Shown: positions 14,894-52,443, counted from the stretch's first letter. The stretch: 64,000 bases of DNA from an uncultured Myxococcales bacterium (GCA_903847405.1 CAINDP010000007.1:48969-112968), one strand, 5' to 3'. Notes: generated by a model not told the origin, from the sequence alone. A program made the numbers and translations.

Positions 14894-14963
14894 CGGAGTC
14901 CCTCCGTTCGCGAGGCCGAGGATCTGGTTCTCACGGTTCCTGTTCATCGCCATCACCTCCGCC

Positions 14964-17900
14964 TCAGATCTTCATCTTGCTGAAGACCTCGTAGACGCCC
15001 CGCATCATGTCGAGGACTTCGACGATGTTGCGGAGTTCCACCTCGGCGGCGGCCTTGTCGGCGCCGGTCGCGGCCTCCCACAGAGCCTTCTGGGCATTGG
15101 CCTTTTCGACCAGCACCACGTTCGGCGAGTACCAGTCCGCGGTGTAGGTCGGTGCCCACACGACGAAGGTCTTGCCGGTGAAGGGATCGCTGAATTCCTG
15201 CGGCACGATCCCGCTGGTGGCCCCGATGTCGTGGCAGTTCCCGTTGCCCTTCAGGCAGACCGTGAACGAATCCAGGAACGACGGGTCGAAGGACGCCGGC
15301 AGGTACGCCATGCCGTAGACCATCATGTACAGCTTCAGGGTGATGTTCTGGATCGACGGCTCGACGCGGGGAGCCGTGCTGGCCGCCACCTCGGTGAGGT
15401 ACGGAGCCGGCACGACCGTTCCGACGATCTCGCCCAGGGTGTCGGTCGCATAGATGCTGCTGTTGCGCGGGTCGAACAGCTTGCGGGGGGCGTAGGTGCC
15501 GCCCTTTTCCGCCGTGCCCGCGAAGATCTGCGGGCTGTCGCTGATGGCGCCGCCGAACAGCTCGGTCAACTGCTTCGGGTACATCGTGTTGAACCCGATC
15601 GAGGTCCCGACGCCGATGTTCAACTGCTCGCCGACGTAGTTGGTCGTGAAGTAGACCGTCGAGTCGGTCAGGGTCATGAGGGCCGCCATCTTCTCCCAGA
15701 ACGAACCGTAGAACTGGGCGTGGTCCCAGAAGAAGTAGCCGGCGCCGTTCCAGAAGGTGGTGTAGGGGTACTTCCCGTCGGACAGCGGGATGTCCAGTTC
15801 GCTGCCCGTCGCGCCGCTGAGGTAGGAGATGTTTTCGAACAGGTTCTTGTCCACGTTCATCTTGTACGAGCCGGGCGCCGGCGAGGCCAGCGTCGAGGCC
15901 AGGATCTCGAAGCCCGTTTCCGACGCGCGCCGCAGGCCGTAGCCCATCAGCTTGGCGTTCGCCCAGACGCCGCGCCAGGAGTAGTTCTTGAGGACGTGGG
16001 AGTACAGCGCGTACAGCATGCCGCAGCCGCGCATGACGTCCATGTAGCGGGTCTGGACGCGGGTCATGTACCCGACCGGGTTGCCGTGGAGGCCGGCGCC
16101 GTAGCGCTCGCGCTTGAAGGCGTCCATCAGGTAGTAGTCGTGCAGCTGGATGCCCATGTTGTGGACGATTTCCAGCGCGTCCACGCCCGTGTCCCACGTG
16201 TAGATGCCGACGTTGCCGGCATACTCGTCACCGCTGAACTTGTAGGGGACCTGGATGTAGGTCCAGTCCAGGTAGGACTGGTAGTAGTTGGTCGTCATGT
16301 TGTGCTCGTCCCGCAGGGACTCGTAGGGCACCGCGGTACGATTGCGGACGCTGTCGCCTTCCGAGCGGTTGGCCTTCTCGCCGATCAGGTTGTTGAAGAA
16401 GTAGAACTGCGAGAAGAAGATGCCGCCGCCCCAGTAGGTCGTGTCCAGGTTGTCCGAGCTCTGGGACTCGCTGTCCTGGCCGTAGCTCTGGTAGTACGTG
16501 TGCACGGCGTTCTGCAGCTTTTCCGTGTCGTTGTACACGTCCACCAGGCCGCCGTAGCCGAACCGGATGGCGGCCTTGTCGTACTTGCCCAGGTCCAGGA
16601 TGTCGCTGTTCCAGCGCTGGCCGTAGTCCATGATGGACGAGACCTGGTAGATGGTCCGGGACTGCTGCGCTTCGCTGTCCGTCAGTTCGGCGCGCGGGAT
16701 GAACGCCATGATCTTGCCGTCGTTCTCGTTCACGACGGGGGTCGTCACGCGGGTCTTGACGCCGTCCTGGCTGCTGTAGCACACGCGGTCGTCGCCGTTG
16801 CAGGTCGAGCCCGCGGGGCAGACGCCGTGGAGGTTGCATCGGGTGATCTCGACGCACTGGCCGGCGATGCAGTCGAAGGTGTCGTACTTCGGGACCGCGG
16901 CGTTGGCGAAGCCGCAGTCCGAGGCCTTCGTGCAGGTTTCGACCTTCTTGGCGCGGCAGAAGTGGCCCTCGCAGTACTGGCCCAGGGCGGCCTCGCACTC
17001 GTCGTTGACCTCGCAGGGTACCGGCTCCTTCACGCGGATGTCGTAGTACTTGTCCGGGTAGTTGAACAGGTCCGTGGACGCCGCGAAGTTGTGCCGCAGG
17101 CCCATCGTGTGGCCGACTTCGTGCTCGACGACGGCCGTGTAGAAGCGCTTCAGGATGCTGCGGGCCAGCATCGGGCCGCTGCTGATGCAGCAGGGGCTGC
17201 CGGTGTCGTTGGCGGGGTCCAGGGCGTCCCACGTCTTTTCGTCGCAGCGCGGGCGGGGGTCGTCGCCGATGCAGGCCCAGGACTGGACCATGCCCAGCAT
17301 GCCTTCGTCGTCGAACTCGCCGTAGCAGTAGGCGTGCTTGCCCAGGTAGATCTGGCGCTCGCGCTCGCGCTTCTGGATGTCCTGGATGTTCGCCCACTCC
17401 AGCGGCGAACCGCTGACGGGGGAGTCGTTGTCCAGGGCGTACTGGACTTCCGAGTTGGTCATCAACTGCTCGTACTGGGTGCCCTTGAGGGCCGCCAGGC
17501 GCTGCTTGCCCAGGGACGGGCTGAGGACCGGAACGGTCGAGGCCAGGGGCGTCCCGATGTTCTTGTCCCGGATGATCTTGAAGATGTCCATCTGGCTGAT
17601 GGGCTTCTGGTTCTGCAGGACCTGCTGCGTCGGATCGAACTGCTGGCGCATGCCGGCAATCGGGTCCAGCGTCTGGGCCGGGGTGCCCTGCGGGGGAGCC
17701 TGCGGGGCCATCATCGCCTGGACTTCGGTCGGGGCGTTCTTGGCCTTGTCCTTGAGGTACGTGCGGATGTTTTCGCCCGTGACGTAGTCCGCCGTGTCCA
17801 GCTTGCCGCTGATCAGGTCGAACAGGTCGCGGTACATGTTGCCGTAGGTCGTCAGCGGGGCGCCATAGATGTTCGCGATGCCCCAGAACACCTGGCCGCT

Positions 17901-20423
17901 GTCCGGATCGGCGGCCGTCGGGCCGTAGCCCAGCGGGGACGAGAACTGCGCCTCGGACACCCACTGGATGCCGGAGTAGCGCGAGTCGCCGATCTTCTTC
18001 ATCGACTGGGCCTGGGTCATCTTCTGGGCCGGGGTCATCTTGGAGGCGCCGGGCAGAAGGTCGATGCAGGGGCTGACGACGGGCAGTTTGGTCATCTGGT
18101 CCGCCGAGGCGTTCTTGATCGTGGCCCACGGGGCGTAGAGGTTCGACGCCCACTCGTCGTCGAACAGGGCGCCGCCTTCCACCTGGGGCGTGTACGTGTT
18201 GCGGCACATGACGAACATGTCGGGCAGGGTCGCCTTGATTTCGTCCAGGCGCGTCCAGTCTTCGGCCGTCATCGGCTGGTCATAGCCGGCGCAGCGGCCC
18301 ACGCCGTCCGCGATGTAGCAGGTCACGTCGCCCTTGGACCCGGCCGGGGCCAGGACCATGCGCTGGGAAACGAAGTCGGCGGGCAGGTTGACGCCGTTGC
18401 CGCCGCCCGAAACGCCCTGGTAGCCGGAGTTGCCGCCGTTCTCGATGGCGTACATGCGCAGGCCGGCGTCGATCGACAGGTCCGCCGTCACGCCCGTCAT
18501 GTTGATGACGCGCAGGCCCTTGATGTCGCTCTTGATGGCCGAGGCCTTCGCCAGCGTGGTGCCGTCGTACGCCAGGGTGACGACCGAGTTCACCGGGCAG
18601 TCGCCGTTGATGGACGCGATCTCGGTGCCGCCTTCCATGACGCTGAACTTCACGTTGCTGGCCGGAAGCACGGAGGCGTGGGCCGGGGTGGCCGGGTCCT
18701 GGGAATCCGCCTTCTTCGTGTTGGGGTCCGCGACCAGGGCGGGGACGCCGGTCAGTGCCGTCGTGCCGTTGACCGCGAGGTCCAGCGTGCGGCCATCGGC
18801 CAGGTTGATCAGGCGGACGCCGCACTTCGACAGCAGGTCGGTCGGGTACTTCCAGTCCGGCACCATGGCCGACGTCCCGCCGGGAAGCGCGACGATGGTC
18901 TGGCCGATGGACGTCCACTGGATCTTGCCGCTGGCGGACTTCGGGAGGTCGCCGTTGCTGGCGTCCAGTTCGAACATGCGGTCCACGAGGGCGTGGGTCG
19001 CGCAGTCGGTATCCGTGGCGCAGGTGCGGACCTGGTTCTGGCCCAGGATGCGGCCCTTTTCTTCCCACAGGTACAGCCACGCGACGGTGTCCTTCAGCGT
19101 GTCGCTCCAGGACTTCGCGGTCCGGTAGGAACCGGTCCACATTTCCGCCTTGATCATGGTGTCCAGTTCGCCTTCCTTCGGGGCTTCCGTCGGCAGGTCC
19201 GCGGACACGTGGTACACGACCGGGCGCAGGCCGCGCTCGGTGTAGGGCAGGGGAGTGCGGGAAACGCAGTTGCCGCGGGTGAACCACGTGTCGGCCTGGC
19301 AGAACTCCTTCACGCCGTTCACGTTGGTCGTGTCGCAGCCCGTGTTCGCCAGATCCTTGAAGCAGGGCTTCGGCGTGCAGACGGCATTCGGGTCGGCCGT
19401 CGGGCAGGTTTCCCCGGCGGCGGTGATCGTGACGGGGGTGTCCTGGAAGGACTTGTCCCAGATGTTCCAGCGGTTGATGAACGACACCTTGCCGGTGTCG
19501 GTCAGGCCGTAGTCTGCGTCATACGTGTTGCGCTCGGTCAGGAAGTAGCCGAACAGGACCTGACGGTCCTCGTTGTGGAAGCGCATCGGCTCGTAGTCCT
19601 GCGCCGGGTCCACCTTGCGGAACGCCGTGCGGAACTTGACGACGGCCGGGGCGCAGTCGCCGGTGGACACGCCGTAGATGTCGCAGGCGCCGGTCGAGGC
19701 CGGGTTGCCCCAGGACTTCGTGACGACGTCGAAGTAGTCGGGAGTGAAGGACGGGGCGTCGGGGTTCGTCGGGTCGTCGGACTGCACGTAGTAGTCGATC
19801 GGCGACTGGTCGATGATGCGGGCCATGAACGTGAAGTCGCTGATCAGGTTCTTGGCCCAGTTGACGCGCATGTACTTGCGCTGCCACCACAGGTTGTCCT
19901 TGGTGTTTTCCTCCAGGACGTTCGACTGCTCACCGGTCTGGGGGTTGTACGCCCGGGTGACGTCGAAGTGGGACAGGACCTGGAAGATGGCCACCGGCTG
20001 TCCGACGTACATCTGGGTGAAGCAGCACAGGCGCGTGGGGTCGGTCAGGTTGTCCTTCCCGTCCACGCACTGGTACAGCTCGCTGTCCTTGTTCGTGCAG
20101 GCGTCGTCCCAGTACTTGAACAACTTCTGCTGGTGCCAGGTCTTTTCCGATCCCTCGACGTACTCGACCGTCGGGTAGGCGATCAGCTTGTCTTCCTGGA
20201 TGTCGAAGACGACCTTGCCGGTGGCGCCGAAATTCATCTCGCCGACGAACGACCATGCCCCGCTGTAGGGGATGTCGATCACGGTTTGATTCATGTACCA
20301 GACGCCCGCGAACTGCTTCTTCGCAAGCTGTTCGTGCTGGGTCCGGTCAATGGTGCCGACGTCCGTGGCGCAACCGCCAAGGGCGGCGAGCGCCAGTCCC
20401 ACCAGGAACCATCGGGCCTTCAT
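14964..20423 (-). CDS. Giant lipoprotein zinc metalloprotease, metzincin-like (1819 aa), paralog of the preceding gene
   Basis: ATG at 20423 with RBS GGGAGG. Lipoprotein signal MKARWFLVGLALAALGGC. Zinc site VEHEVGHTMGLRHNF with Met-turn VSSIMDYG. Shared N-terminal blocks with the 1450-aa paralog (GTIDRTQ, VFDIQEDKL, YNPQTGEQSNVLEENTKDNLWWQRKYMRVNW). A ~370-aa Cys-rich insertion follows the zinc site. Confidence 0.85.
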   Translation of the reverse strand: MKARWFLVGLALAALGGCATDVGTIDRTQHEQLAKKQFAGVWYMNQTVIDIPYSGAWSFVGEMNFGATGKVVFDIQEDKLIAYPTVEYVEGSEKTWHQQKLFKYWDDACTNKDSELYQCVDGKDNLTDPTRLCCFTQMYVGQPVAIFQVLSHFDVTRAYNPQTGEQSNVLEENTKDNLWWQRKYMRVNWAKNLISDFTFMARIIDQSPIDYYVQSDDPTNPDAPSFTPDYFDVVTKSWGNPASTGACDIYGVSTGDCAPAVVKFRTAFRKVDPAQDYEPMRFHNEDRQVLFGYFLTERNTYDADYGLTDTGKVSFINRWNIWDKSFQDTPVTITAAGETCPTADPNAVCTPKPCFKDLANTGCDTTNVNGVKEFCQADTWFTRGNCVSRTPLPYTERGLRPVVYHVSADLPTEAPKEGELDTMIKAEMWTGSYRTAKSWSDTLKDTVAWLYLWEEKGRILGQNQVRTCATDTDCATHALVDRMFELDASNGDLPKSASGKIQWTSIGQTIVALPGGTSAMVPDWKYPTDLLSKCGVRLINLADGRTLDLAVNGTTALTGVPALVADPNTKKADSQDPATPAHASVLPASNVKFSVMEGGTEIASINGDCPVNSVVTLAYDGTTLAKASAIKSDIKGLRVINMTGVTADLSIDAGLRMYAIENGGNSGYQGVSGGGNGVNLPADFVSQRMVLAPAGSKGDVTCYIADGVGRCAGYDQPMTAEDWTRLDEIKATLPDMFVMCRNTYTPQVEGGALFDDEWASNLYAPWATIKNASADQMTKLPVVSPCIDLLPGASKMTPAQKMTQAQSMKKIGDSRYSGIQWVSEAQFSSPLGYGPTAADPDSGQVFWGIANIYGAPLTTYGNMYRDLFDLISGKLDTADYVTGENIRTYLKDKAKNAPTEVQAMMAPQAPPQGTPAQTLDPIAGMRQQFDPTQQVLQNQKPISQMDIFKIIRDKNIGTPLASTVPVLSPSLGKQRLAALKGTQYEQLMTNSEVQYALDNDSPVSGSPLEWANIQDIQKRERERQIYLGKHAYCYGEFDDEGMLGMVQSWACIGDDPRPRCDEKTWDALDPANDTGSPCCISSGPMLARSILKRFYTAVVEHEVGHTMGLRHNFAASTDLFNYPDKYYDIRVKEPVPCEVNDECEAALGQYCEGHFCRAKKVETCTKASDCGFANAAVPKYDTFDCIAGQCVEITRCNLHGVCPAGSTCNGDDRVCYSSQDGVKTRVTTPVVNENDGKIMAFIPRAELTDSEAQQSRTIYQVSSIMDYGQRWNSDILDLGKYDKAAIRFGYGGLVDVYNDTEKLQNAVHTYYQSYGQDSESQSSDNLDTTYWGGGIFFSQFYFFNNLIGEKANRSEGDSVRNRTAVPYESLRDEHNMTTNYYQSYLDWTYIQVPYKFSGDEYAGNVGIYTWDTGVDALEIVHNMGIQLHDYYLMDAFKRERYGAGLHGNPVGYMTRVQTRYMDVMRGCGMLYALYSHVLKNYSWRGVWANAKLMGYGLRRASETGFEILASTLASPAPGSYKMNVDKNLFENISYLSGATGSELDIPLSDGKYPYTTFWNGAGYFFWDHAQFYGSFWEKMAALMTLTDSTVYFTTNYVGEQLNIGVGTSIGFNTMYPKQLTELFGGAISDSPQIFAGTAEKGGTYAPRKLFDPRNSSIYATDTLGEIVGTVVPAPYLTEVAASTAPRVEPSIQNITLKLYMMVYGMAYLPASFDPSFLDSFTVCLKGNGNCHDIGATSGIVPQEFSDPFTGKTFVVWAPTYTADWYSPNVVLVEKANAQKALWEAATGADKAAAEVELRNIVEVLDMMRGVYEVFSKMKI

Positions 20424-20734
20424 TGCAACCTCCCACACCCTTGGACTGCAAGGCGGAAGCGGCCTGCTCCCTGCCTGAAAACCGACGTTATATACCTGCA
20501 AACACTCGGCAAGGGAAGCGGCAATTCGCGTCGCGGTGTCCGGTCTCTTCAATCGCAAGAATCGGGCCAATACCGGGGCCCCCGGGCGCCTTCCGGTGCA
20601 CCGAAAGCGGGGAGCGGGGGGCTTCCGGCCGGATTCGGTTGCGGCGTCACGATCCGGACGGCGTGCGGCCGCGGCTTTCCAAGACCGCGCCGGCGTGCTA
20701 TCAGATCAAGGTGTAAGCGCGGAGTTGCCCCACG

Positions 20735-21654: not shown

Positions 21655-21663
21655 GGTTCAGAG

Positions 21664-21737
21664 TGGCGAAGGAGGGATTTGAACCCCCGACACGGCGGAT
21701 ATGAGCCGCCTGCTCTGACCAACTGAGCTACTTCGCC
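21664..21737 (-). tRNA. tRNA-Met (anticodon CAT), elongator-type
   Basis: The reverse complement folds as GGCGAAG-TA-GCTC-AGTTGGTC-AGAGC-A-GGCGG-CTCATAT-CCGCC-GTGTC-GGGGG-TTCAAAT-CCCTC-CTTCGCC-A, a cloverleaf with a G1:C72 pair. CCA is not encoded. tRNA-Ile2 (lysidine) cannot be excluded from sequence alone. Confidence 0.85.
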
Positions 21738-42015: not shown

Positions 42016-42507
42016 CTACAGGTACCGCTTCAGCAGCTTCTTGCCCTGGGGGTCCAGGGCGCGGGTATCCAGCACGCGATACCGGACCCCTTCGGCGTCG
42101 GAAATCAGCACGCCGTTCAATCCCAGGCGCCGCACGTGGTCCTCGCTGGTCAGCACGAAGCGGACCTCGCCGCGATCCGTTTCCACGTGCCACGCGGTGG
42201 GCTCGGACCCCTGCGAGATGTCCAGGATGCGGCGGATGGTCGGCACGAACTCGCGGCGGGACAGTTCCTGCTCCAGCAGGCTCCGCACGCCCGGATCCAG
42301 GTCGGCCAGGTCGGTGATGCAGGCCACCTCGTGGCCCTGCGGGTCGCACAGCGAAACGCGCTGCGTGGGCGAGGTGAACGGGAAGCAGCGCACGGGGACC
42401 ACGTTCACCACGGGCGCGGCGCCCGGCAGTGCCATGACCATGCGGCCGAAGGCATCGACGTGCAGCGCCAGAGCGGCGGCGTCACCAGAGGTCAGGTCCG
42501 TGGTCAC
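42016..42507 (-). CDS. Small conserved protein, DUF1854-like (163 aa), coupled to the ABC exporter
   Basis: The GTG at 42507 overlaps the ABC exporter stop (GTGA). Proteins of this type usually neighbour ABC exporters. Confidence 0.55.
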   Translation of the reverse strand: MTTDLTSGDAAALALHVDAFGRMVMALPGAAPVVNVVPVRCFPFTSPTQRVSLCDPQGHEVACITDLADLDPGVRSLLEQELSRREFVPTIRRILDISQGSEPTAWHVETDRGEVRFVLTSEDHVRRLGLNGVLISDAEGVRYRVLDTRALDPQGKKLLKRYL

Positions 42508-44858
42508 GGCGACTCCTTCCGCGACGGTTCGGCGCGCAACAGGGCCTGGGGCGGCAACGGCTCGACCGGAGCGCCCTCGCCGGGGTGCTCCATTTCATGG
42601 CGCGACTGCGCCTCGTACAGGCTGCGGTACAGCCCGTCGGCGGCGATCAACTGCTCGTGGCTGCCCGTTTCGACGATGCGTCCGCCGTCCAGCACGACGA
42701 TTCTATCCGCGTTGCGCAGGGTGCTCAGGCGGTGCGCGATGGCCAGCGTGGTGCGGCCGCGGACCAGGTTGTCCAGGGCTTCCTGGATCTGGATTTCGGT
42801 CTGCGTGTCCACCGACGACGTCGCCTCGTCCAGGATCAGCAGGCGCGGGTCGATCAGCAGCGCCCGGGCGATGCTGATGCGCTGGCGCTCGCCGCCCGAC
42901 AGGGTCTGGCCGCGCTCCCCGACGATGCTGTCATAGCCGTCGGGCAACTGCAGGATGAACTCGTGGGCCCGGGCGGCACGGGCGGCGGCGATGATCTCGT
43001 CGTGCGACGCCGCGGGCCGGCCGTAGGCGATGTTTTCGGCGATGGTCCCGTAGAACAGGAACGGGTCCTGCAGCACGATGCCGATGTTGCGGCGGTACTC
43101 CAGCGTCGGGAACGACCGGATGTCCTTGCCGTCCACCAGGATCGAGCCGTCCGTCACGTCGTAGAACCGGCAGATCAGGTTCAACAGCGTGGTCTTGCCG
43201 GCGCCGGTGGGCCCCACGACGCCGACCATCTCGCCGGGGCGGATCGTGATGCTGACGTCGTCCAGGATGCGGCGGTTGCCGAAGCGGAAGCCCACGTTCC
43301 GCAGTTCGACCTCGCCCTTCAAGCGTCCCGGGGAAACGGGGTTCGCCGGCTCGGCGACGCTGGGCGCCCGGTCCAGGACCTCGAAGATGCGCTGGGCGCT
43401 GGCGGCCGCACGCTGGGTGCTGCCCGCCATGCGGGTCATCGATTCCAGGCGGCCGTAGAACCGCGCGATGTACGCCAGGAACGCGGTCAGCACGCCGACG
43501 GTGATCACCTGGTCGAACACGCGCCAGGCGCCGAAGGCCCAGGCGACCACCAGTCCCATCTGGTTCAGCATGGCGACCATGGGCCAGAAGAACGTCCAGA
43601 CGCGGTTGACGCGGTCGTTCGCGGCCACGATGCGGTCGTTGGAGGCCTTGAACCGTTCGACCTCGCGCCGTTCCTGGGCGAAGGCCTTCACGACGCGGAC
43701 GCCGGGAATGGTGTCGGACAGGATCGAGGTCATTTCGTCCCAGGCGCGGTAGCCCCGGGCGAAGCCCTCGGACAGCCGGGTCCGGGTGGTATACGTCAGC
43801 CAGGCGACGCCCGGGAAGGTGCACAGCGTCGCCGCGGCCAGCAACGGATCCATGTAGAACAGCATGGCCGCGATGCCGACGATCATCAGGGCGTCGGCCG
43901 TGAAGTCCGTCAGGGTATCGGAAAGGAAGTAGCAGATGCGGTCCGAGTCGGTGCTGATGCGCGTCACCAGATCGCCCGTGCGCTTGGCGCTGAAGTAGTC
44001 CAGGGACAGGGAATGCACGTGGGCGTACGTCGTGTTGCGCAGGTCCGCGCTGATGCGCTCGGACAGGCGGGCCAGCACCCAGCCCTGTCCCCATCCGAGG
44101 CCCCAGGCCGCCAGGCCGGACCCGATCATTCCCAGGAGGTACCACGGCACCATCGCGAAGGGTTCGTGCGCCTTCTCCCGCAGGGATTCCAGGCGGGCCT
44201 CCCTGGCCACTTCGCCGATCGTCGGGTCGTCGCGGGCGATTTTCACCTGCTCCTGGTAGGGGGCGAAGATGTCGTCCACCAGGGGCCACGTCAGCAGCGG
44301 CGGGATCAGTCCCGCCGCGGTCGAGGTCAGGGTCAGGCACAGGCCCAGGGCCAGCCACGCCAGGTGGGGGCGCGCGAAGCGCAGCAGCCGGAACAGGGTG
44401 CCGACGCGCGGGGGTTCCTCGGGCTGGACCGTTTCCGGGACCTCCAGGTCGGCCTCCTGGCCGGCCGTCGCCGAAGGGACCTGTCGCTCCGCCCGGAGGC
44501 CGGCGAACACGTCGAGGACCGATGCGACCCCCTTCGCCCGGCCGAGGGTGTAGTGCCAGCGACCCAGGAGGCCGTCGGCTCCCAGGGCTTCCAGCGTGCC
44601 CAGGCCGCCGCGATCCGTTGCCGTCAGGCCGGTGACGGCCTCCAGGGGCCAGGCGCGGAAACCGGTGCGCGCGGCCAGGTCGTCCATCGCGATCAGGCGG
44701 CGCTCGGTGAGCGCGACGATGCCCTCGCGGAAGGCCCGGGACGGGTCCAGATCCAGACGGAAGGAGGCCAGGATCCGCTCGCCCGGATCGAGGTGCGGGG
44801 CGAGGATCGCAAGCGAGGGATGGAGGGCGTTGTTGCGACGTTCGGTGCTGTCGTTCAA
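42504..44858 (-). CDS. ABC exporter (fused 6-TM permease + ATPase, MsbA type) with an N-terminal bacterial PH-like domain
   Basis: Walker A GPTGAGKTT, signature LSGGERQR, Walker B LILDEATSSVD. TM domain with an ABC-exporter fold. N-terminal GERILASFRLDL...GIVALTERRLIA (bPH-like). The start is uncertain (TTG at 44858, or ATG at 44687). The ORF-track extension to 45191 crosses repeat copy D and was rejected. Confidence 0.75.
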   Translation of the reverse strand: MNDSTERRNNALHPSLAILAPHLDPGERILASFRLDLDPSRAFREGIVALTERRLIAMDDLAARTGFRAWPLEAVTGLTATDRGGLGTLEALGADGLLGRWHYTLGRAKGVASVLDVFAGLRAERQVPSATAGQEADLEVPETVQPEEPPRVGTLFRLLRFARPHLAWLALGLCLTLTSTAAGLIPPLLTWPLVDDIFAPYQEQVKIARDDPTIGEVAREARLESLREKAHEPFAMVPWYLLGMIGSGLAAWGLGWGQGWVLARLSERISADLRNTTYAHVHSLSLDYFSAKRTGDLVTRISTDSDRICYFLSDTLTDFTADALMIVGIAAMLFYMDPLLAAATLCTFPGVAWLTYTTRTRLSEGFARGYRAWDEMTSILSDTIPGVRVVKAFAQERREVERFKASNDRIVAANDRVNRVWTFFWPMVAMLNQMGLVVAWAFGAWRVFDQVITVGVLTAFLAYIARFYGRLESMTRMAGSTQRAAASAQRIFEVLDRAPSVAEPANPVSPGRLKGEVELRNVGFRFGNRRILDDVSITIRPGEMVGVVGPTGAGKTTLLNLICRFYDVTDGSILVDGKDIRSFPTLEYRRNIGIVLQDPFLFYGTIAENIAYGRPAASHDEIIAAARAARAHEFILQLPDGYDSIVGERGQTLSGGERQRISIARALLIDPRLLILDEATSSVDTQTEIQIQEALDNLVRGRTTLAIAHRLSTLRNADRIVVLDGGRIVETGSHEQLIAADGLYRSLYEAQSRHEMEHPGEGAPVEPLPPQALLRAEPSRKESP

Positions 44859-44935
44859 GGGGGCCCCACTGCAGCCGCGCCGCAGTTTACTTCCACCGGG
44901 GCCGTGAGTAAAATGCCGCCCGCGGCCGTCCGACG

Positions 44936-45019
44936 GAGCCGCCCGAGCACGCAGGCGCAGGCGAGCGGATTGCGCAGCAATCTCTCGCCGAAGACGAAGT
45001 CGCCTCGGGCCTTTCCACT
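44936..45019. repeat. Intergenic ~84-bp hairpin repeat element, copy D (in the divergent promoter region)
   Basis: gagccgCCCGAGcacgcaggcgcaggcgagcggattgcgcagcaatctctcgccgaagacgaagtcgcCTCGGGcctttccactg. The 5' half resembles copies A/B and the 3' half resembles copy C. Confidence 0.85.
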
Positions 45020-45111
45020 GGACGCGTACCGGGGCGTTCCGGCGTTGGCGCGATGTCCCAGGGGGCTGGGCGCGGCGCCGGGGTTCAGATCCCTTCATGT
45101 CGAAGGAAACC

Positions 45112-47760
45112 ATGGAATTCCAGCGAATTCTGGCACTGAAGGGACCCAATCTCTGGTCGCGGCGCACCTGCCTGGAAGCCTGGGTGGACATCGGTCCGCT
45201 GCAGGATTCGCCGTCGAACCTGCTGCCCGGCCTGTACGAGCGTCTGTCCGCCTGGCTGCCGGGCCTGATCGAGCACCGGTGCGGCGTCGGGGAGCGGGGC
45301 GGCTTCCTGATGCGCCTGCGCGACGGGACCTACGCCGCCCACATGCTGGAACACGTGGCCATCGAACTGCAGAACCTGGCGGGCACGCCGGTCGGGTTCG
45401 GCAAGGCCCGGGAAACCTCGCGGCCCGGCCTGTACAAGGTCGCCATCCGGTACCGCAACGAAACAGTGGCGCGGGCCTGTCTGGATGCGGGACGGGACCT
45501 GCTGCTGGCGGCCATCCACGACCATCCGTACGACGTGGCCGACACCGTCGCCCGGCTGCGGGACGTGGCCGACGGCGCCTGCCTGGGCCCCAGCACGGCG
45601 GCCATCGTCGATGCGGCCGAGGCGCGGGGCATCCCGACGCACCGCCTGACCGACGCCAGCCTGGTCCAGTTGGGCCAGGGCGCCCGGCAGCACCGGATCT
45701 GGACGGCCGAAACCGATCGCACCGGCGCGATCGGCGAGTGGATCGCCTCGGACAAGGACATGACCAAGCGCCTGCTGCAGGCGTGCGGCGTGCCGATCCC
45801 CGAGGGCCGCCTGGTGGACGGCGCGGAAGACGCCTGGGTGGCCGCGCAGTCGGTGGGGCTGCCCGTCGTCGTCAAGCCCCGGGACGCCAACCACGGGCGG
45901 GGCGTCTTCACGGACCTGTCGTCCCGCGAGGAAATCGAAAACGCCTACGCCGTCGCGGTGAACGAGGGCAGCGGGGTGATCGTCGAGCGCTTCGTCCGCG
46001 GCAACGAGCACCGCCTGCTGGTCGTCGGCCACAGCATGGTGGCGGCCGCCCGGGGCGAAACCGCGTGGGTCGTCGGGGACGGGCGCTCCACGGTGCGGGA
46101 CCTGGTGACCTCGCAGATCGATTCGGATCCGCGACGCGGGTTGGGCGAGGACTTCCCCCTGAACTTCATCGAACTGGACGACCCGGTGGTGATGCTGGAC
46201 ATGCGGCGCCAGGGGTATTCGGCCGATTCGGTGCCTGCCGACGGCGCCCGGGTGATGGTCCAGCGCAACGGGAACGTGGCGTTCGACGTCACGGACATCG
46301 TGCATCCCCGCGTCGCCGCCAGCGTGGTCCTGGCGGCCCGGGTGGTCGGCCTGGACGTGGCCGGCATCGACATCGTCGCCGAGGACATCACGCGTCCGCT
46401 GGAAGAGCAGGGCGGTGCCGTGGTCGAGGTCAACGCGGGCCCCGGCCTGTCGATGCACCTCAAGCCCGCCGCCGGGACCCCCCGGCCGGTCGGGGAAGCG
46501 ATCGTGGACAGCCTGTTCGCCCCCGGCGAATCGGGCCGGATCCCCCTGGTCTGCGTGACCGGCACCAGCGGCAAGACCGTGGTGACGCGCCTGGTCGCCC
46601 ACCTGCTGCGGGCTGACGGGCGCCACGTGGGCCTGGCGTGCAGCGACGGCCTGTACCTGGATTCCCGGGTGATCGAAACGTGCGATCGCGCGGACGCCCC
46701 GGGCGCACGCAAGGCGCTGATGAACCCCTCCGTCGACGCGGCGGTGCTGGAGGCGGGCGGCCCCAGCATCCTGCGCGAGGGCCTGGGCTTCGACCGGTGC
46801 GACGTGGCGGTAGTGACCAACATCGGGCAGGGCGATCACCTGGGGCTGCACGACATCCAGTCGCCCGACGCCCTGTACTCGGTGAAGCGTTGCGCGGTGG
46901 ACGTGGTGCTGCCGACGGGGACCGCCGTGCTGAATGCCGCCGACCCCCTGGTGGCGGAAATGGCGTCCCTGTCCGCCGGCGCGGTGATCTTCTTCGCGCT
47001 GGACGCGGGCCACCCGATCCTGGGGGCCCATCGGGCTGCGGGCGGGCGTGCCGTGACGGTCCGCGACGGTCGCGTGGTCCTGGCCGAGGGGGACGTGGAA
47101 ACGCCCATCGCGGACGTTTCCGCCTTGCCGTTGGCCCACGGGGGGCGCGTTCCGTTCCAGGTCGAAAACGTGCTGGCGGCGGCGGCGGCGGGCTGGGCGC
47201 TGGGCCTGTCTCCCGCGGCGCTGGGCGCGGGTGTCCTGTCGTTCGACCGCGATGGCCGCGAACTCCCCGGCCGCTTCACCTGCATGGAACATGACGGGGC
47301 GACCGTCGTGATCGACGCGGTCCGCAACCCGGTGTCCGGCGGGGCCCTGGCGACGGCCCTGGATCACTTCCCCGCCAGGCGCAGGACCCTCGTCTGTGTC
47401 CCGGGGATCCTGCGGCGCGACGCCGATCTGGAGGACCTGGGCCGGATCCTGGGCGCCGCCTTCGATCGCATCGTCTTCTGCGGTTCGGAACCGGCGTCGC
47501 AGGAGGAGGACGCCGCTGCGGCAACAAGAATTGTCGATGCCTTGCAACCTTCCACCGGGTCGCTCCGTACACCCCTTCGACGCGGGGCCTTATCGGGCGG
47601 ACGGGCGGTTGAAATCGTGCAGGTTCCGGGGCATCACGAGGCCGTCGAGGCCGCCCTGGACACGCTGGAGGTCGGCGATCTGCTGGTCCTCCAGGCCGAC
47701 GAATATCATCCCGGGTCCACCGTCGATCAGGTCCGCGAATGGATGGTACGGCACGCCTAG
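45112..47760 (+). CDS. cphA: Cyanophycin synthetase
   Basis: ATG at 45112 with RBS GAAGGAAA. N-domain (LKGPNLWSRRT, TRETSRPGLYKV). ATP-grasp (LGPSTAAIV, VVVKPRDANHGRGV, IVERFVRGNEHRLLVV, VEVNAGPGLSMH). Mur-ligase domain (VTGTSGKTVVTRL, GDHLGL). Confidence 0.9.
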   Translation: MEFQRILALKGPNLWSRRTCLEAWVDIGPLQDSPSNLLPGLYERLSAWLPGLIEHRCGVGERGGFLMRLRDGTYAAHMLEHVAIELQNLAGTPVGFGKARETSRPGLYKVAIRYRNETVARACLDAGRDLLLAAIHDHPYDVADTVARLRDVADGACLGPSTAAIVDAAEARGIPTHRLTDASLVQLGQGARQHRIWTAETDRTGAIGEWIASDKDMTKRLLQACGVPIPEGRLVDGAEDAWVAAQSVGLPVVVKPRDANHGRGVFTDLSSREEIENAYAVAVNEGSGVIVERFVRGNEHRLLVVGHSMVAAARGETAWVVGDGRSTVRDLVTSQIDSDPRRGLGEDFPLNFIELDDPVVMLDMRRQGYSADSVPADGARVMVQRNGNVAFDVTDIVHPRVAASVVLAARVVGLDVAGIDIVAEDITRPLEEQGGAVVEVNAGPGLSMHLKPAAGTPRPVGEAIVDSLFAPGESGRIPLVCVTGTSGKTVVTRLVAHLLRADGRHVGLACSDGLYLDSRVIETCDRADAPGARKALMNPSVDAAVLEAGGPSILREGLGFDRCDVAVVTNIGQGDHLGLHDIQSPDALYSVKRCAVDVVLPTGTAVLNAADPLVAEMASLSAGAVIFFALDAGHPILGAHRAAGGRAVTVRDGRVVLAEGDVETPIADVSALPLAHGGRVPFQVENVLAAAAAGWALGLSPAALGAGVLSFDRDGRELPGRFTCMEHDGATVVIDAVRNPVSGGALATALDHFPARRRTLVCVPGILRRDADLEDLGRILGAAFDRIVFCGSEPASQEEDAAAATRIVDALQPSTGSLRTPLRRGALSGGRAVEIVQVPGHHEAVEAALDTLEVGDLLVLQADEYHPGSTVDQVREWMVRHA

Positions 47761-47811
47761 GCGTGTCGCGTGTGTTCGACGCCGATCGTGGCTGGACAGG
47801 GAAAGCCCCCG

Positions 47812-50433
47812 ATGGAAGTCACCCGCATCCGAGCCCTCCGCGGCCCGAACCTGTGGTCGCGCCGGACGGTCCTGGAAGCCATCGTTTCACTGACGGACGA
47901 ACAGCGCCAGATCCTGGCGCGGCCGGGGTTCGAGGAGCGCCTGCGCGAGCGGATGCCCAGCCTGGGCCGTCTGCCTCCCACGGGCGAACCCGGCGCGTTC
48001 AGCCTGGCCCACGTCCTGGAAAGGGTCGCCCTGGGGCTGCAGGCCCAGGCCGGGTGCCCCGTCTTCTTCAGTCGGACCGCGATGACGGTCGAGGAAGGCG
48101 TCTACCAGGTCGTGGTCGAATACGCGGTCGAGGAGGTCGGGCGGCTGGCGCTGGACCAGGCGCAGACCCTCTGCGACGCCGCGCTGGACGGACAGCCCTA
48201 CGACGTCGTCGACGCCCTGCTGCGACTGCGGGCCCTGGACGAGGAGATCCGCCTGGGGCCGTCGACGGGATCGATCGTCCGTGCGGCCCTGTCCCGCGGG
48301 ATTCCCATCCGCCGCCTGAACGAAGGCAGCCTGGTGCAGTTCGGCTGGGGCGTGAAGCAGCACCGGATCCTGGCGGCCGAAACGGACCACACCAGCGCCA
48401 TCGCCGAATCGATCGCCCAGGACAAGGAACTGACCAAGATGCTGCTGGAGGCGGCCGGCGTGCCGGTGCCCCGGGGGCGTCCCGTGACCGATGCCGAGGA
48501 CGCCTGGGAGGCCGCGCAGGAAGTCGGCCTGCCCGTGGTCGTCAAGCCGCGCAACGGCAGCCAGGGACGCGGCGTCGCCGTGAACCTGACCACCCGCGAG
48601 GCGGTCGCCGCCGCATACGTCGCGGCCGAGCAGGTCACCAGCGAGGTCCTCGTCGAGCGGTTCATGCCGGGCCGGGACTTCCGCCTGCTGGTGATCGGCG
48701 GACGCCTGGTCGCAGCGGCCCGTCGCGAGCCCCCTGAGGTTGTCGGGGACGGCGAGCGGACCATCCGCCAGTTGGTGGACGAAGTGAACGCCGATCCGCG
48801 GCGCAGCGACGGCCATGCGACGTCGTTGACCCGGATCCCGCTGGACGCGATCGGCCTGGCCGTCCTGGCCGAACAGAACTGCACTCCGGAAACGGTTCCC
48901 GCCCACGGCGTGCGCGTCCTGCTGCGCGGCAACGCGAACCTCAGCACCGGCGGGACGGCGACGGACGTCACCGACCAGGTCCATCCGGACGTGGCGGCCG
49001 GGGCCGTGGATGCGGCCAAGGTCATCGGCCTGGACATCTGTGGCGTGGACGTCATCTGCCAGGACATCTCCCGTCCCCTGCAGGAGCAGTCCGGCGGCGT
49101 CGTGGAAGTCAACGCGGCTCCGGGGTTCCGCATGCACCTGGATCCTTCCTACGGGAAGGGCCGGCCGGTGGGCGAGGCGGTCGTGTCCACGATGTTTGCC
49201 GAGGGCGACGACGGCCGCATCCCGCTGGTGGCCGTATCCGGCACCAACGGCAAGACGACCACGGTCCGCCTGGTTTCGCACCTGCTGAAGGCCCGGGGCC
49301 AGTGCGTGGGCATGACCTGTTCCGACGGGATCTACGTGGACGCACGGCGCATCGACGACGGGGACTGCAGCGGTCCCAAGAGCGCCCGGGCGATCCTGCT
49401 GCACCCGGACGTCGAGGCGGCCGTGTTCGAAACCGCACGGGGCGGGATCCTGCGCGAGGGCCTCGCCTTCGACAAGTGCGACGTGGCCGTGGTCACGAAC
49501 GTCGGGACCGGCGATCACCTCGGGCTGTCGTTCATCACGACGGTCGATGATCTGGCGGTCATCAAGCGCGTGATCGTCGAAAACGTGGCGCCCACGGGCG
49601 TCGCGGTTCTGAACGCGGCCGATCCCCTGGTGGCGCCCATGGCCGAGGCGTGCCCGGGGACGGTGACGTTCTTCGCCCCGAACGCGGACAACGCGGTCCT
49701 CGCCGCGCATCGCAGTGCCGGTGGACGCGTGGTGTTCGTGGACGGTTCCGACATCGTCGCCGTCGAGGGCGCGACCGAGGAGCGCATCGCCCTGGCGTCC
49801 ATCCCGATCACCCGCGACGGGTGCGTGCGCTTCCAGGTCGAAAACGCGATGGCCTCCATCGGGGCCGCCTGGGCGTTGAAGGTCGACTGGGCCACCATCC
49901 GCACCGGGCTGGGGACCTTCGTCAACGACATCCAGACCGCGCCCGGGCGCTTCAACATCCTGGACTACAGGGCCGCGATGGTGATCGCGGACTACGGCCA
50001 CAATCCGGACGCCATCCTTGCCCTGGTGGACGCGGTCGAGCGCATGCCGTCCCGGCGCCGCATCGCGGTGATCAGCGCCGCCGGCGATCGCCGGGACGTG
50101 GACATCCGGCGCCAGACCGAAATCCTGGGCGAGGCCTTCGACGAAATCATCCTGTACCAGGACGCCTGCCAGCGCGGCCGCGAGGACGGCGAGGTCGTGG
50201 CGCTGCTGCGCGAAGGCCTCAGCCATGCGCATCGCGTGTCGGAGGTGTCCGAGATCCGGGGCGAGTTCCTGGCCATCGAAACGGCCCTGGGCCGCCTGGC
50301 TCCGGGCGACCTGGCCTTGATCCTGATCGATCAGATCGAGGAGTCCCTGGCGCTGCTGGAACGTGCGATCCAGGGTGCGCCGCTGCGCGCCGAAGAGGGC
50401 GCGGCCGGGAACCTGGAAGCCGCGTGCGGATGA
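47812..50433 (+). CDS. cphA: Second cyanophycin synthetase paralog (cphA'-type)
   Basis: ATG at 47812 (MEVTRIRALRGPNLWSRRT). VVVKPRNGSQGRGV, DPRRSDGH, VEVNAAPGFRMH, VSGTNGKTTTVRL, GDHLGL. It starts 52 bp after the first cphA. Confidence 0.9.
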   Translation: MEVTRIRALRGPNLWSRRTVLEAIVSLTDEQRQILARPGFEERLRERMPSLGRLPPTGEPGAFSLAHVLERVALGLQAQAGCPVFFSRTAMTVEEGVYQVVVEYAVEEVGRLALDQAQTLCDAALDGQPYDVVDALLRLRALDEEIRLGPSTGSIVRAALSRGIPIRRLNEGSLVQFGWGVKQHRILAAETDHTSAIAESIAQDKELTKMLLEAAGVPVPRGRPVTDAEDAWEAAQEVGLPVVVKPRNGSQGRGVAVNLTTREAVAAAYVAAEQVTSEVLVERFMPGRDFRLLVIGGRLVAAARREPPEVVGDGERTIRQLVDEVNADPRRSDGHATSLTRIPLDAIGLAVLAEQNCTPETVPAHGVRVLLRGNANLSTGGTATDVTDQVHPDVAAGAVDAAKVIGLDICGVDVICQDISRPLQEQSGGVVEVNAAPGFRMHLDPSYGKGRPVGEAVVSTMFAEGDDGRIPLVAVSGTNGKTTTVRLVSHLLKARGQCVGMTCSDGIYVDARRIDDGDCSGPKSARAILLHPDVEAAVFETARGGILREGLAFDKCDVAVVTNVGTGDHLGLSFITTVDDLAVIKRVIVENVAPTGVAVLNAADPLVAPMAEACPGTVTFFAPNADNAVLAAHRSAGGRVVFVDGSDIVAVEGATEERIALASIPITRDGCVRFQVENAMASIGAAWALKVDWATIRTGLGTFVNDIQTAPGRFNILDYRAAMVIADYGHNPDAILALVDAVERMPSRRRIAVISAAGDRRDVDIRRQTEILGEAFDEIILYQDACQRGREDGEVVALLREGLSHAHRVSEVSEIRGEFLAIETALGRLAPGDLALILIDQIEESLALLERAIQGAPLRAEEGAAGNLEAACG

Positions 50434-50538
50434 CGCGTTCCGTTCCGCCCGCATGATTCCCCGCATCTCACGTTGACGCCGCACCCCGCAAGCGTTTCAA
50501 TGCCCCGGTACGAATTGGATGTGTTGCCGGGAGGCCCC

Positions 50539-52443
50539 ATGAAGTTCCTGAAGACGGTTCTGTGGATCGCGATCGCCCTGGTGGGGGCCTTTTCGTACGC
50601 GGTGATCACCCGGCTGGTGAACCCGGACGAGCCGATCAACGCCCTGTGGCTGGTCGTCGCCGCCGCCTGTACCTACGTGCTGGCGTACCGGTTCTACGGC
50701 GCCTTCCTGGCCTCGAAGGTCTTTGCGCTGGACGATCGCAGCCCGACCCCGGGCGTGCGGTTCGCCGACGGCCGCGACTTTCACCCGACGAACAAGTGGG
50801 TGCTGTTCGGGCACCACTTCGCCGCCATCGCGGGCGCGGGTCCGCTGATCGGCCCGGTGCTGGCCGCCCAGTTCGGCTACCTGCCGGGCGCCCTGTGGCT
50901 GCTGCTGGGGGCGGTGTTCGCCGGCGCGGTCCACGACTTCGTCATCCTGGTCGCGTCGATCCGCCATGACGGGTGCTCGCTGGCGGAAATCGCCCGCCGG
51001 GAGGTCGGCCCGGTCGCGGGCGTGGCCGCGTCGCTGGCGACCCTGTTCATCGTGGTGGTCGCGCTGGCGGGCCTGGGACTGGCCGTCGTGAACGCGCTGG
51101 CGCACAGCCCCTGGGGTACCTTCACGATCGCCAGCACCATCCCGATCGCGCTGTTCATGGGCCTGTACATGTACAAGATCCGGCCCGGCAAGGTGGTCGA
51201 AACGACCGTGATCGGCGTCACGCTGTTGATCCTGGCCGTGGTGTTCGGGCACGACGTCGCGAATTCCGAGGCGGCCGGGTGGTTCACGCTGCAGCGGAAC
51301 ACGCTGGTCTTCGCGATGGCGGCCTACGGGTTCATCGCGTCGGTGCTGCCGGTGTGGATGCTGCTGTGCCCGCGGGATTACCTCAGCACGTACATGAAAC
51401 TGGGGACGATCTTCCTGCTGGCCGCCGGCATCCTGTTCCTGGCGCCCGACCTGAAGATGCCTGCGACGACGCAGTTCATGGACGGCTCGGGGCCGGTGAT
51501 CCCCGGCTCGGTGTTCCCGTTCATGTTCATCACGATCGCGTGCGGCGCGGTGTCCGGTTTCCACGCGCTGGTCGCGTCGGGCACGACGCCGAAGATGATC
51601 AAGCGGGAGTCCGACGCGCTGGCGATCGGATACGGGGCGATGCTGGTCGAGGGCTTCGTGTCGATGATGGCGCTGATCGCCGCCAGTTGCCTGATCCCCG
51701 GCGACTACTTCGCGATCAACTCGATGCTCAGCGTGGACGCGCTGACGCAGTTGGGCTTTGCGCCCGAGCGGATCCACGAACTGTCGCAGATGGTCGGGAC
51801 CGACGTGATGAACCGGCCGGGCGGCGCGGTGTCGCTGGCGGTGGGCATGGCGTCGATTTTTTCGTCCCTGCCCGGGATGAAGGGCCTGATGGCCTACTGG
51901 TACAACTTCGCGCTGATGTTCGAGGCGCTGTTCATCCTGACCACGGTGGACACGGGGACCCGCGTGGCGCGCTTCCTGGTGCAGGAGATGGGCGGGTACT
52001 TCTACAAGCCCCTGGGGCGGCACGCGTGGATTCCGGGGACGCTGCTTTCCAGCACGCTGGTCGTGGGGGCCTGGAGCTACATGATCTACACGGGCAGCAT
52101 CGCGACGATCTGGCCGATGTTCGGGGTGGCGAACCAGTTGCTGGCGGCCATCGCGCTGTCGGTGGGGACCTCGGTCATGTTCCGGATGGGGAAGGCGAAG
52201 TACACGCCGATCACGATCGTCCCGATGGCCTTCATGGTCGTCACGACGCTGACGGCTTCGGTGGAACTGGTCCAGCGGTATTGGGCCGAGGCCGCAGCGA
52301 AACCGGAGTTGGCGTTCACGTTGCGGCTGGACGCGGTGCTGGTGGGGATCGTCGCGTGCCTGGTCGTGGTCATCCTGGTCGATTCGATCCGCCGGTGGCG
52401 GGGGTACATGGCGGCCGGGCCCAAGAGGCCGGTCGTGGCGTAA
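50539..52443 (+). CDS. cstA: Carbon starvation protein A (CstA family peptide/pyruvate transporter)
   Basis: ATG at 50539 with RBS GGGAGG. 634 aa, ~16 TM. CstA blocks (WVLFGHHFAAIAGAGPLIGPVLAAQFGYLPG, GNVLWALDSLTTG-like FMFITIACGAVSGFHALVASGTTPKM). Confidence 0.9.
   Translation: MKFLKTVLWIAIALVGAFSYAVITRLVNPDEPINALWLVVAAACTYVLAYRFYGAFLASKVFALDDRSPTPGVRFADGRDFHPTNKWVLFGHHFAAIAGAGPLIGPVLAAQFGYLPGALWLLLGAVFAGAVHDFVILVASIRHDGCSLAEIARREVGPVAGVAASLATLFIVVVALAGLGLAVVNALAHSPWGTFTIASTIPIALFMGLYMYKIRPGKVVETTVIGVTLLILAVVFGHDVANSEAAGWFTLQRNTLVFAMAAYGFIASVLPVWMLLCPRDYLSTYMKLGTIFLLAAGILFLAPDLKMPATTQFMDGSGPVIPGSVFPFMFITIACGAVSGFHALVASGTTPKMIKRESDALAIGYGAMLVEGFVSMMALIAASCLIPGDYFAINSMLSVDALTQLGFAPERIHELSQMVGTDVMNRPGGAVSLAVGMASIFSSLPGMKGLMAYWYNFALMFEALFILTTVDTGTRVARFLVQEMGGYFYKPLGRHAWIPGTLLSSTLVVGAWSYMIYTGSIATIWPMFGVANQLLAAIALSVGTSVMFRMGKAKYTPITIVPMAFMVVTTLTASVELVQRYWAEAAAKPELAFTLRLDAVLVGIVACLVVVILVDSIRRWRGYMAAGPKRPVVA

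Follow-up and report, generated by a model that had tools for sequence, protein, structure and literature searches.

The 64,000-nucleotide stretch of DNA analysed here, from an uncultured Myxococcales bacterium (GCA_903847405.1, CAINDP010000007.1:48969-112968; the whole stretch is called the window below), carries two adjacent genes for cyanophycin synthetase (CphA)-type proteins, P1 and P2, which are divergent to a gene pair encoding an ATP-binding cassette (ABC) exporter half-transporter and a DUF1854 protein. The four genes form a module that is already known and occurs widely; the window has its Myxococcota version. Judged from their residues, P1 and P2 belong to ancient, differently specialised paralog clades with reciprocal losses, and their complementarity appears to be a true one: P1 has an intact zinc site in its N domain where that of P2 is destroyed, and P2 has kept the substrate pockets and the Mlid that P1 has lost. 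We favour, with a probability of roughly 0.55, the reading that P2 would be the polymerase of the module, that P1 would supply primers and tether the chains, and that the product likely passes to the ABC/DUF1854 exporter.

Gene content of the locus

A preliminary description of this DNA had reported two head-to-tail CphA-type genes of 882 and 873 codons, 52 bp apart, each with N-domain, ATP-grasp and Mur-ligase modules. Both open reading frames (ORFs) and their adjacency are confirmed, the spacer being 51 nt (47761-47811) instead of 52. The divergent ABC and DUF1854 genes directly upstream, which belong to the same module, lay outside that description. With positions counted from the first letter of the window, the features are:

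42016-42507, minus strand: DUF1854 protein, 163 residues, partner of the ABC exporter (NCBIfam NF052234)
42504-44858, minus strand: ABC exporter half-transporter, about 784 residues, with an N-terminal cytoplasmic domain of about 170 residues, a transmembrane domain and a nucleotide-binding domain (Pfam ABC_membrane and ABC_tran; NF052233)
44859-45111: 253 bp between the divergently transcribed ABC and P1 genes, presumed shared promoter region
45112-47760, plus strand: P1, CphA-type paralog, 882 residues, alternative ATG at 45097 (Pfam; NF010623)
47812-50433, plus strand: P2, CphA-type paralog, 873 residues (Pfam; NF010623; TIGR02068)
50539-52443, plus strand: cstA-family transporter, about 634 residues (Pfam CstA)

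The open frames extend from 45097 to 47760 (P1) and from 47770 to 50433 (P2), both on the plus strand, and the stated lengths follow from the ATG starts at 45112 and 47812. Both proteins match the Pfam families Cyanophycin_syn (N domain), the ATP-grasp families, Mur_ligase_M and Mur_ligase_C, which bears out the three modules reported for each. Moreover, both score above the cut-off of NF010623 'cyanophycin synthetase' (877 bits) with 1119 bits for P1 and 1222 for P2, while the equivalog TIGR02068 (cut-off 850 bits) is reached by P2 with 980.8 bits and not by P1 with 834.7. Among solved structures both come closest to 7LG5 and 7WAC, two cyanophycin synthetases (E-values 1e-174 to 1e-195); the identity between the two paralogs is 47%. 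A protein identical to P2 (P0121) is encoded on a public contig of 159,675 bp.

Active-site residues of the two paralogs

Which activities of a cyanophycin synthetase could each paralog still carry? After the sequences of SuCphA1 and TeCphA1 had been rebuilt from PDB alignments and their numbering verified on published residues, those residues were mapped whose roles have been established (PMC9262961; PMC9427784); residue numbers below are those of SuCphA1/TeCphA1 unless said to be P1's own. In P1 the Cx19HxxEH zinc (metallopeptidase) site of the N domain is complete, consisting of H55, C57, H77, E80, H81 and E85 in P1's own numbering. The core of the ATP-grasp (G) domain is kept as well (K220, K261, H267, R309, D431, E450 and G456), and the motifs PRDANHGRG (ATP-grasp loop) and GTSGKTV (Mur-ligase P-loop) are present in the translation, as are all four motifs quoted in the preliminary description (DANHGRG, GTSGKTV, NGSQGRG, GTNGKTT). 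The aspartate pocket, however, is not that of the characterised enzymes, in that P1 has R323G, R458S and a 5-residue deletion removing the LSTGG large loop (N394/S396 region); in addition, Glu215 is replaced by Trp. P1 is thus most likely unable to bind the incoming aspartate in the canonical way. The Mur-ligase (M) domain of P1 retains K499, T500, E558, D585, H586 and R731, has changed at N497S and H748R (DAVRNP), and has lost the RGR motif of Mlid, the role of which we presume from the DNPR motif of MurE. In the characterised enzymes Asn497 stacks on the adenine and His748 touches the gamma-phosphate (PMC9262961; PMC9427784), and the M domain of P1 appears to be degenerating. The weight of such changes can be gauged from mutants, as R323A, N394A and R458A impair TeCphA1, S396W kills SuCphA1, and deletion of Mlid strongly lowers activity (PMC9427784).

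P2 shows the reverse pattern. Its zinc site is destroyed by H57R, C59P, an 8-residue deletion, H83R and E87G. The G domain has H267Q and E215S, with the loop motif PRNGSQGRG, and keeps R309, R323, N394, S396, D431, E450, G456 and R458; K220 and K261 are also present. The full set of M-domain residues is found, with GTNGKTT, ETARGG, D585/H586, DYGHNP, GDRRD and RGR all kept. Apart from position 267 and Glu215, the G-domain contacts of P2 for ATP/Mg, the end of the chain and the incoming aspartate are thus all retained, and its arginine-ligase (M) domain looks fully canonical.

The replacement of His267 deserves attention, as H267A inactivates SuCphA1, which is separately inactivated by D585A/H586A (PMC9262961), and H267A inactivates TeCphA1 too (PMC9427784). 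Nevertheless, Gln267 is probably a working variant, compatible with activity, because single-gene ABC-linked enzymes with an intact N-site also carry it. It is found in seven of these (L034, L052, L053, L074, L075, L077 and L078), and three of them, L034, L075 and L078, have it though no second CphA lies within 10 kb.

Conservation and ancestry of the pair

The reciprocal pattern extends well beyond the window. All 120 P1-type orthologs have the intact N-site (HCHEHE) and all have K220, K261, H267, R309, D431 and E450; R323G, the large-loop deletion and the loss of the Mlid RGR motif are equally universal (120/120 each), and position 458 is never Arg in any of them. P2-type orthologs have a dead N-site in 119 of 119 cases and Gln267 in 117, the remaining G and M residues being canonical throughout (119/119). 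N497S and H748R occur in only one and two of the 120 P1-type orthologs, respectively, the usual P-loop being GTNGKT followed by V, T or I. Since N497S is that rare, GTSGKTV is a lineage-specific extra loss. Long-form P1 orthologs retain the ATP contacts of the M domain. Many betaproteobacterial P1 proteins are shorter (about 712-735 residues), lack Mlid and have mostly lost K499 and/or the D585/H586 pair, with the N-site and the G core kept; the short forms, too, have replacements at R323, at R458 and of the large loop.

Domain conservation was expressed as mean pairwise identity, using the same 32 genomes for P1 and P2. It amounts to 0.69 for P1 and 0.52 for P2 in the N domain, 0.71 and 0.73 in the G domain, 0.60 and 0.68 in Mcore, and 0.46 and 0.66 in Mlid, so that the G domain of P2 is the most conserved of all domains compared.

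These figures bear on the functionally split synthetase proposed in the preliminary description, in which the G domain of P1 would add aspartate, that of P2 being dead through H267Q, and the M domain of P2 would add arginine, that of P1 being dead. The loss of activity of both characterised enzymes upon H267A, together with the retention of His267 in P1, would fit such a split, and M-domain function is clearly concentrated in P2. P1, however, has none of R323, the S396 loop and R458, and mutating these impairs or abolishes the function of the characterised enzymes; the most conserved domain (0.73), with its aspartate-binding residues in 119 of 119 P2-type orthologs, would be unexpected for a dead one; and Q267 is also found in single-gene enzymes. 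We therefore consider the proposal in this form improbable. What appears to stand is that the arginine-ligase (M) function is confined to P2; the assignment of aspartate addition to P1 does not, its aspartate contacts being lost, and NGSQGRG as a mark of inactivation probably falls with the clade-wide occurrence of H267Q, single-gene enzymes included.

In a neighbour-joining tree, which is rough and carries no support values, the P1-type (59), P2-type (54) and single-gene enzymes (22) are each monophyletic, with P1 and P2 clades covering three phyla. From the single-gene enzymes the distances to the two paralogs are nearly equal (0.466 and 0.470), as compared to 0.563 between P1 and P2 in the same tree. 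A recent tandem duplication yielding two redundant, fully active synthetases can on these grounds practically be dismissed. The pair does share its three-domain architecture, and both members exceed the NF010623 cut-off, but 47% identity, separate clades over three phyla and clade-wide reciprocal residue losses are not what a simple duplication would leave behind, and the scoring of residues thus agrees with the preliminary description on this point.

One further position sets the whole ABC-linked clade apart. In TeCphA1 Glu215 spans the Gcore dimer and holds the arginine side chain at the last unit of the polymer (PMC9427784), whereas Ser, Gly, Ala or Trp is found there in nearly all members of the ABC-linked clade, P1 and P2 included. 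Recognition of the last side chain may differ in this clade, or the side chain itself may be another one.

The module in other genomes

A locus scan with a P1-type alignment, taking one genome per species, gave 80 loci onto which five proteins of the window were mapped. The nearest of them are from uncultured Myxococcales metagenome-assembled genomes (MAGs) with 68-70% identity. In about 50 of the 80 loci the genes are arranged as DUF1854 and ABC on the minus strand and P1 and P2 on the plus strand, spanning Myxococcota, Burkholderiales, Nitrosomonadales and Rhodocyclales; in the window, too, the arrangement is divergent and the P1-type gene precedes the P2-type gene. Look-ups starting from P2-type proteins found all four genes, with the P1-type gene upstream, in five of five cases. 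Some Planctomycetes have P1 and P2 without the transporter nearby. When all flanking ORFs of the 80 loci were clustered, CphA, ABC and DUF1854 were the sole families to recur across taxa. The other candidate partners were dropped: DUF1501, DUF1559 and sulfatase recur in planctomycetes, LysR and SLT in Betaproteobacteria, and none of them is related to cyanophycin.

A single CphA gene beside ABC and DUF1854 genes occurs in several Planctomycetota (Pirellulales, Lacipirellulaceae, Planctomycetaceae, Thermoguttaceae) and in an acidobacterial MAG, and in these single-gene ABC-linked enzymes the N-site is intact and both the G and the M domain are canonical. Such loci look like the unduplicated state of the module. 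Eight of them were noted individually (L034, L052, L053, L058, L066, L075, L077 and L078), all with three active sites and six with Q267; the acidobacterial MAG is labelled Candidatus Solibacter usitatus.

Two other arrangements were observed. Short P1-type genes of about 640-735 codons, without Mlid and with an architecture convergent to that of CphA2, are found in Nitrosomonadales, Rhodocyclales and Oxalobacteraceae (L026, L033, L036, L039, L040, L042, L044, L047, L049, L050, L055, L056, L059, L060, L065, L068, L069, L071, L073, L076, L079, L080 and L085-L087); in those that were residue-mapped the P-loop of the M domain and the D585/H586 pair are mostly degenerate. A protein of 1,493 residues (P0124, from an ENA contig of 47 kb) was considered as a P1-P2 fusion and rejected, as the gene call spans two other CphA-like ORFs of different type, the first without N domain and with the P-loop DADYGHG, the second with an intact N-site and FGNQGRG. 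It may be another paired-CphA architecture or a frameshifted assembly.

The ABC and DUF1854 proteins exceed the cut-offs of the models that NCBIfam names 'cyanophycin metabolism-associated ABC transporter' (NF052233; 1003 bits, cut-off 880) and 'cyanophycin metabolism-associated DUF1854 family protein' (NF052234; 171.6 bits, cut-off 150). The TTG start of the ABC gene at 44858 was set by alignment with the orthologs of 748-775 residues in L081, L082, L085 and L087, the longer ORF, reaching to 45191, overlapping P1. The stop of the ABC gene and the start of the DUF1854 gene overlap in the tetranucleotide GTGA at 42504-42507 (minus strand), and a Shine-Dalgarno sequence, GGAAGGAG, lies 5-12 nt upstream; the two genes are therefore likely to be translationally coupled. 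This fits the reported fusion of the two proteins in some genomes (bioRxiv 10.1101/072470). A relation of DUF1854 to the N-terminal domain of the ABC protein was considered as well, and hhalign found none (probability 0.2).

A proposed division of labour

The arrangement of the four genes is already known. A 'Group 1' cluster with two cphA copies and an ABC transporter but without cphB has been described (PMC10687191), neighbouring cphA copies having been reported by Fuser and Steinbuchel (2007), as that paper cites them. Cofitness of the DUF1854, ABC, cphA and cphA' genes was seen in Acidovorax 3H11 and in Cupriavidus basilensis 4G11 by Price et al., who suggested that an amino-acid polymer is exported (bioRxiv 10.1101/072470). 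Among 903 CphA1-encoding Betaproteobacteria only 2.8% have a recognisable cyanophycinase (PMC10206079). The statement of the preliminary description that cphA/cphA' pairs are known is in line with these three sources, pairs without a cyanophycinase included. In the literature searched we found no statement on how the active sites are partitioned between P1 and P2.

How could two such proteins cooperate? From gene content, residue patterns, conservation and synteny we infer what each protein does, how P1 and P2 interact, what kind of polymer is made and that it is exported, as follows. The paralogs would share out the work of a single three-site cyanophycin synthetase, that is, they would have subfunctionalised. 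P2 would be the polymerase, its G domain adding aspartate and its M domain the side-chain amino acid. With its dead N-site P2 would need primers, by analogy with the CphA1 of Tatumella, and the zinc site of P1, which is strongly constrained, would cut the polymer to provide them, P1 in addition tethering the chains. P1 could act on P2 in trans or within a mixed oligomer. A precedent exists, in that SuCphA1 with dead G and M domains, or its isolated N domain, when given in trans, makes the N-dead TmCphA1 primer-independent (PMC9262961). The polymer would probably be handed to the MsbA-type ABC/DUF1854 exporter and not be stored and remobilised, because linkage to the exporter is tight and no cyanophycinase was found among the window proteins scanned.

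Several points weigh against this reading. The role of P1 as a pure primer-maker would leave unexplained both its invariant ATP-grasp core and the P2-like conservation of its G domain, and equally the ATP contacts kept in the M domain of long-form P1 proteins. Neither paralog has kept Glu215, the residue that reads the arginine side chain at the end of the chain, and H267Q may affect catalysis by P2. The hetero-oligomer and the biochemistry of the pair are predictions, and what points to export is synteny and cofitness. Finally, with the orthologous genes of Ralstonia eutropha H16 cyanophycin could not be detected, neither in their own host nor in E. coli, according to the accounts of Adames 2013 given in PMC8560796 and in bioRxiv 10.1101/072470, and the product may therefore not be classical cyanophycin.

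The main rival starts from the first of these points, as the invariance of the ATP-grasp core of P1 despite the lost acceptor pocket suggests a retained chemistry with a different nucleophile. P1 would then be a neofunctionalised, active ligase that activates the C-terminal carboxylate of the chain and joins it to a nucleophile free of carboxylates (for instance an amine, the head group of a lipid or a group of the cell wall), thereby capping or anchoring a non-classical polymer for export. In its favour, the core is invariant while the two arginines that hold the carboxylates of the incoming aspartate (R323 and R458), as well as the large loop, have been replaced in the 120 orthologs and in the short forms, and the G domain of P1 is conserved like that of P2 (0.71 as compared to 0.73). 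Tight linkage to the exporter and the replacement of Glu215 across the ABC-linked clade would suit it equally, as would the R. eutropha genes, for which, as far as PMC8560796 recounts the work, cyanophycin was not detected and a 'different light-scattering polymer' was suggested (bioRxiv 10.1101/072470; PMC8560796). On the other hand, the alternative substrate is purely hypothetical, binding of ATP could persist for structural or regulatory reasons, and the complete Asp/Arg machinery of P2, RGR motif included, argues for a cyanophycin-like backbone. All in all we hold this rival to be unlikely, though to be taken seriously. A more specific version, in which the remodelled pocket of P1 (R323G, loop deleted, position 458 hydrophobic) would join a cyanophycin-like chain to a non-amino-acid amine or envelope component, and the module would serve synthesis, capping and export of an extracellular or envelope poly-amino acid instead of a nitrogen store, is somewhat more doubtful still.

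It could also be imagined that P1 is a non-catalytic pseudoenzyme which serves as scaffold or allosteric activator of P2. It has lost the substrate pockets, the M domain is decaying and in some forms truncated, and dead paralogs activating weak enzymes are found in other families, but the six zinc-site residues kept in 120 of 120 orthologs, together with the invariant ATP-grasp residues, point to retained chemistry. We regard a pseudoenzyme as even a little less probable than the split synthetase discussed above.

What would follow if the favoured reading, with P2 as polymerase and P1 as supplier of primers, were correct? The role of cphA/cphA' pairs is a matter of interest, as most hosts have no cyanophycinase, yet mutants show fitness and motility phenotypes. 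The residue and conservation maps replace the notion that 'one copy may be inactive' by a concrete, testable division of labour, in which P2 would carry both ligase activities and P1 the zinc primer site, along with an ATP-grasp core whose acceptor pocket has changed. Such a division would account for the failure of single-gene expression and show a route to reconstitution. Furthermore, a large share of the 'cyanophycin synthetase' annotations in Betaproteobacteria, Myxococcota and Planctomycetota would refer to a two-subunit, export-tied enzyme, which bears on work on nitrogen recovery from wastewater that counts cphA genes. What the window itself contributes is limited to a new host at phylum level and a few substitutions specific to its lineage.

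Relation to known systems

The closest known relative is the betaproteobacterial cphA/cphA' cluster with ABC and DUF1854 genes, found in R. eutropha/Cupriavidus necator H16, C. basilensis 4G11, Acidovorax 3H11 and 'Ca. Accumulibacter', which has the same genes in the same order and orientation. Compared to the Cupriavidus/Achromobacter orthologs P1 of the window is about 58-60% and P2 about 68-69% identical, with the same residue signatures. The betaproteobacterial cluster is likewise without a cyanophycinase nearby and is covered by the literature and by family models (bioRxiv 10.1101/072470; PMC10687191; NF052233/NF052234). The window differs from it by its uncultured Myxococcota host, by N497S and H748R in P1, which are rare elsewhere, and by the cstA gene downstream. 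Insertion sequence (IS) elements were not seen flanking the locus in the window, in contrast to the sludge clusters of PMC10687191.

With the canonical CphA1 of Synechocystis sp. UTEX2470 (PDB 7LG5) and Thermosynechococcus (PDB 7WAC) P1 and P2 share the N-G-M architecture, and jointly they hold all three active sites of one such enzyme. Neither paralog has the full CphA1 set, however, P1 being without the aspartate pocket and the Mlid motifs, P2 without the N-site and with Q267, and both without E215. P2 resembles the primer-dependent TmCphA1 of Tatumella, which has no Cx19HxxEH, and P1 resembles the G/M-inactive SuCphA1 helper (PMC9262961). This pair is the closest mechanistic precedent; there, it is an artificial mixture of proteins from two species, whereas here the two roles would fall to adjacent natural paralogs.

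CphA2 (PDB 7TA5, 8FXH) shares with the short P1 forms the truncated, inactive M domain without Mlid (PMC9427784; PMC10273328). It is opposite to P1 in that it keeps the large loop (N393 and S395 being essential) and lacks the N-domain active site. P1 of the window is full length, with a GxxGKT P-loop and the N-site and without the large loop, and P2 has a complete M domain, so that neither is a CphA2. Use of dipeptides by P1 in the manner of CphA2 was rejected, as CphA2 requires the large loop that is deleted in P1.

Neighbouring genes and non-coding features

The protein encoded downstream of P2 belongs to the CstA family according to Pfam (CstA, PF02554; 729 bits). It reaches 647.8 bits with the NCBIfam equivalog NF011590, named 'pyruvate/proton symporter CstA', the cut-off of which is 1188, and it is hence not the equivalog of E. 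coli CstA. The likely start of the gene is at 50539 (MKFLKTV), as called in the 94% relative L084, and not at 50473, which places it 105 nt past the P2 stop. The preliminary description had a cstA gene follow the pair immediately; it does lie next on the same strand, but its link to the pair is not conserved. A cstA gene is found in none of the 80 related loci and is absent from the relatives L081 (79%) and L082 (77%), which have other genes downstream; only L084 shares the adjacency. cstA was therefore rejected as a conserved member of the module and is a lineage-specific local neighbour. Could it still function in the system, for example by importing beta-Asp-Arg dipeptides or peptides to feed or recycle the polymer? 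In favour are its position 105 nt downstream on the same strand, a spacer in which no terminator-like site was found and the adjacency kept in L084. Its absence from every one of the 80 related loci as well as from L081 and L082, the promoter-like sequence in the spacer and a score far under the cut-off of an equivalog model that stands for a pyruvate/proton symporter make such a role very unlikely. The sequence in question, TTGACG-17-TTCAAT at 50472-50500 between P2 and cstA, was noticed by eye, the consensus scan not having reported it, and it may be an independent cstA promoter.

A Pfam scan of the predicted proteins of the window, in which two giant ORFs were only sampled, found no cyanophycinase (Peptidase_S51), IaaA (Asparaginase_2) or IadA-type amidohydrolase; among the proteins thus scanned the earlier statement that the window has no cphB or cphE cyanophycinase and no isoaspartyl dipeptidase holds. 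The two giant ORFs are adjacent on the minus strand (10541-14971 and 14964-20705; about 1,450 and 1,800 residues) and have similar opening sequences, with a signal peptide and lipobox-like N-termini; their G+C content is 0.93 at third codon positions (GC3) and only 0.56-0.58 at first positions (GC1). Three segments of 666 residues taken from them gave no match in Pfam. They look like paralogous giant lipoproteins.

Promoter and terminator scans at the locus gave matches at chance level only. A sigma-70-like match at 44886-44914 (plus strand) in the region between the ABC gene and P1 is one found as compared to 0.5 expected, which is not above chance, and an Rfam scan of this region (44859-45111) found no family. 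Over the full 64 kb Rfam and ARAGORN gave a tRNA-Met (CAT) at 21663-21737 (minus strand), far from the locus, as the sole match, with no regulatory RNA. The G+C content is about 70% throughout the window, and the composition shows no break at the locus.

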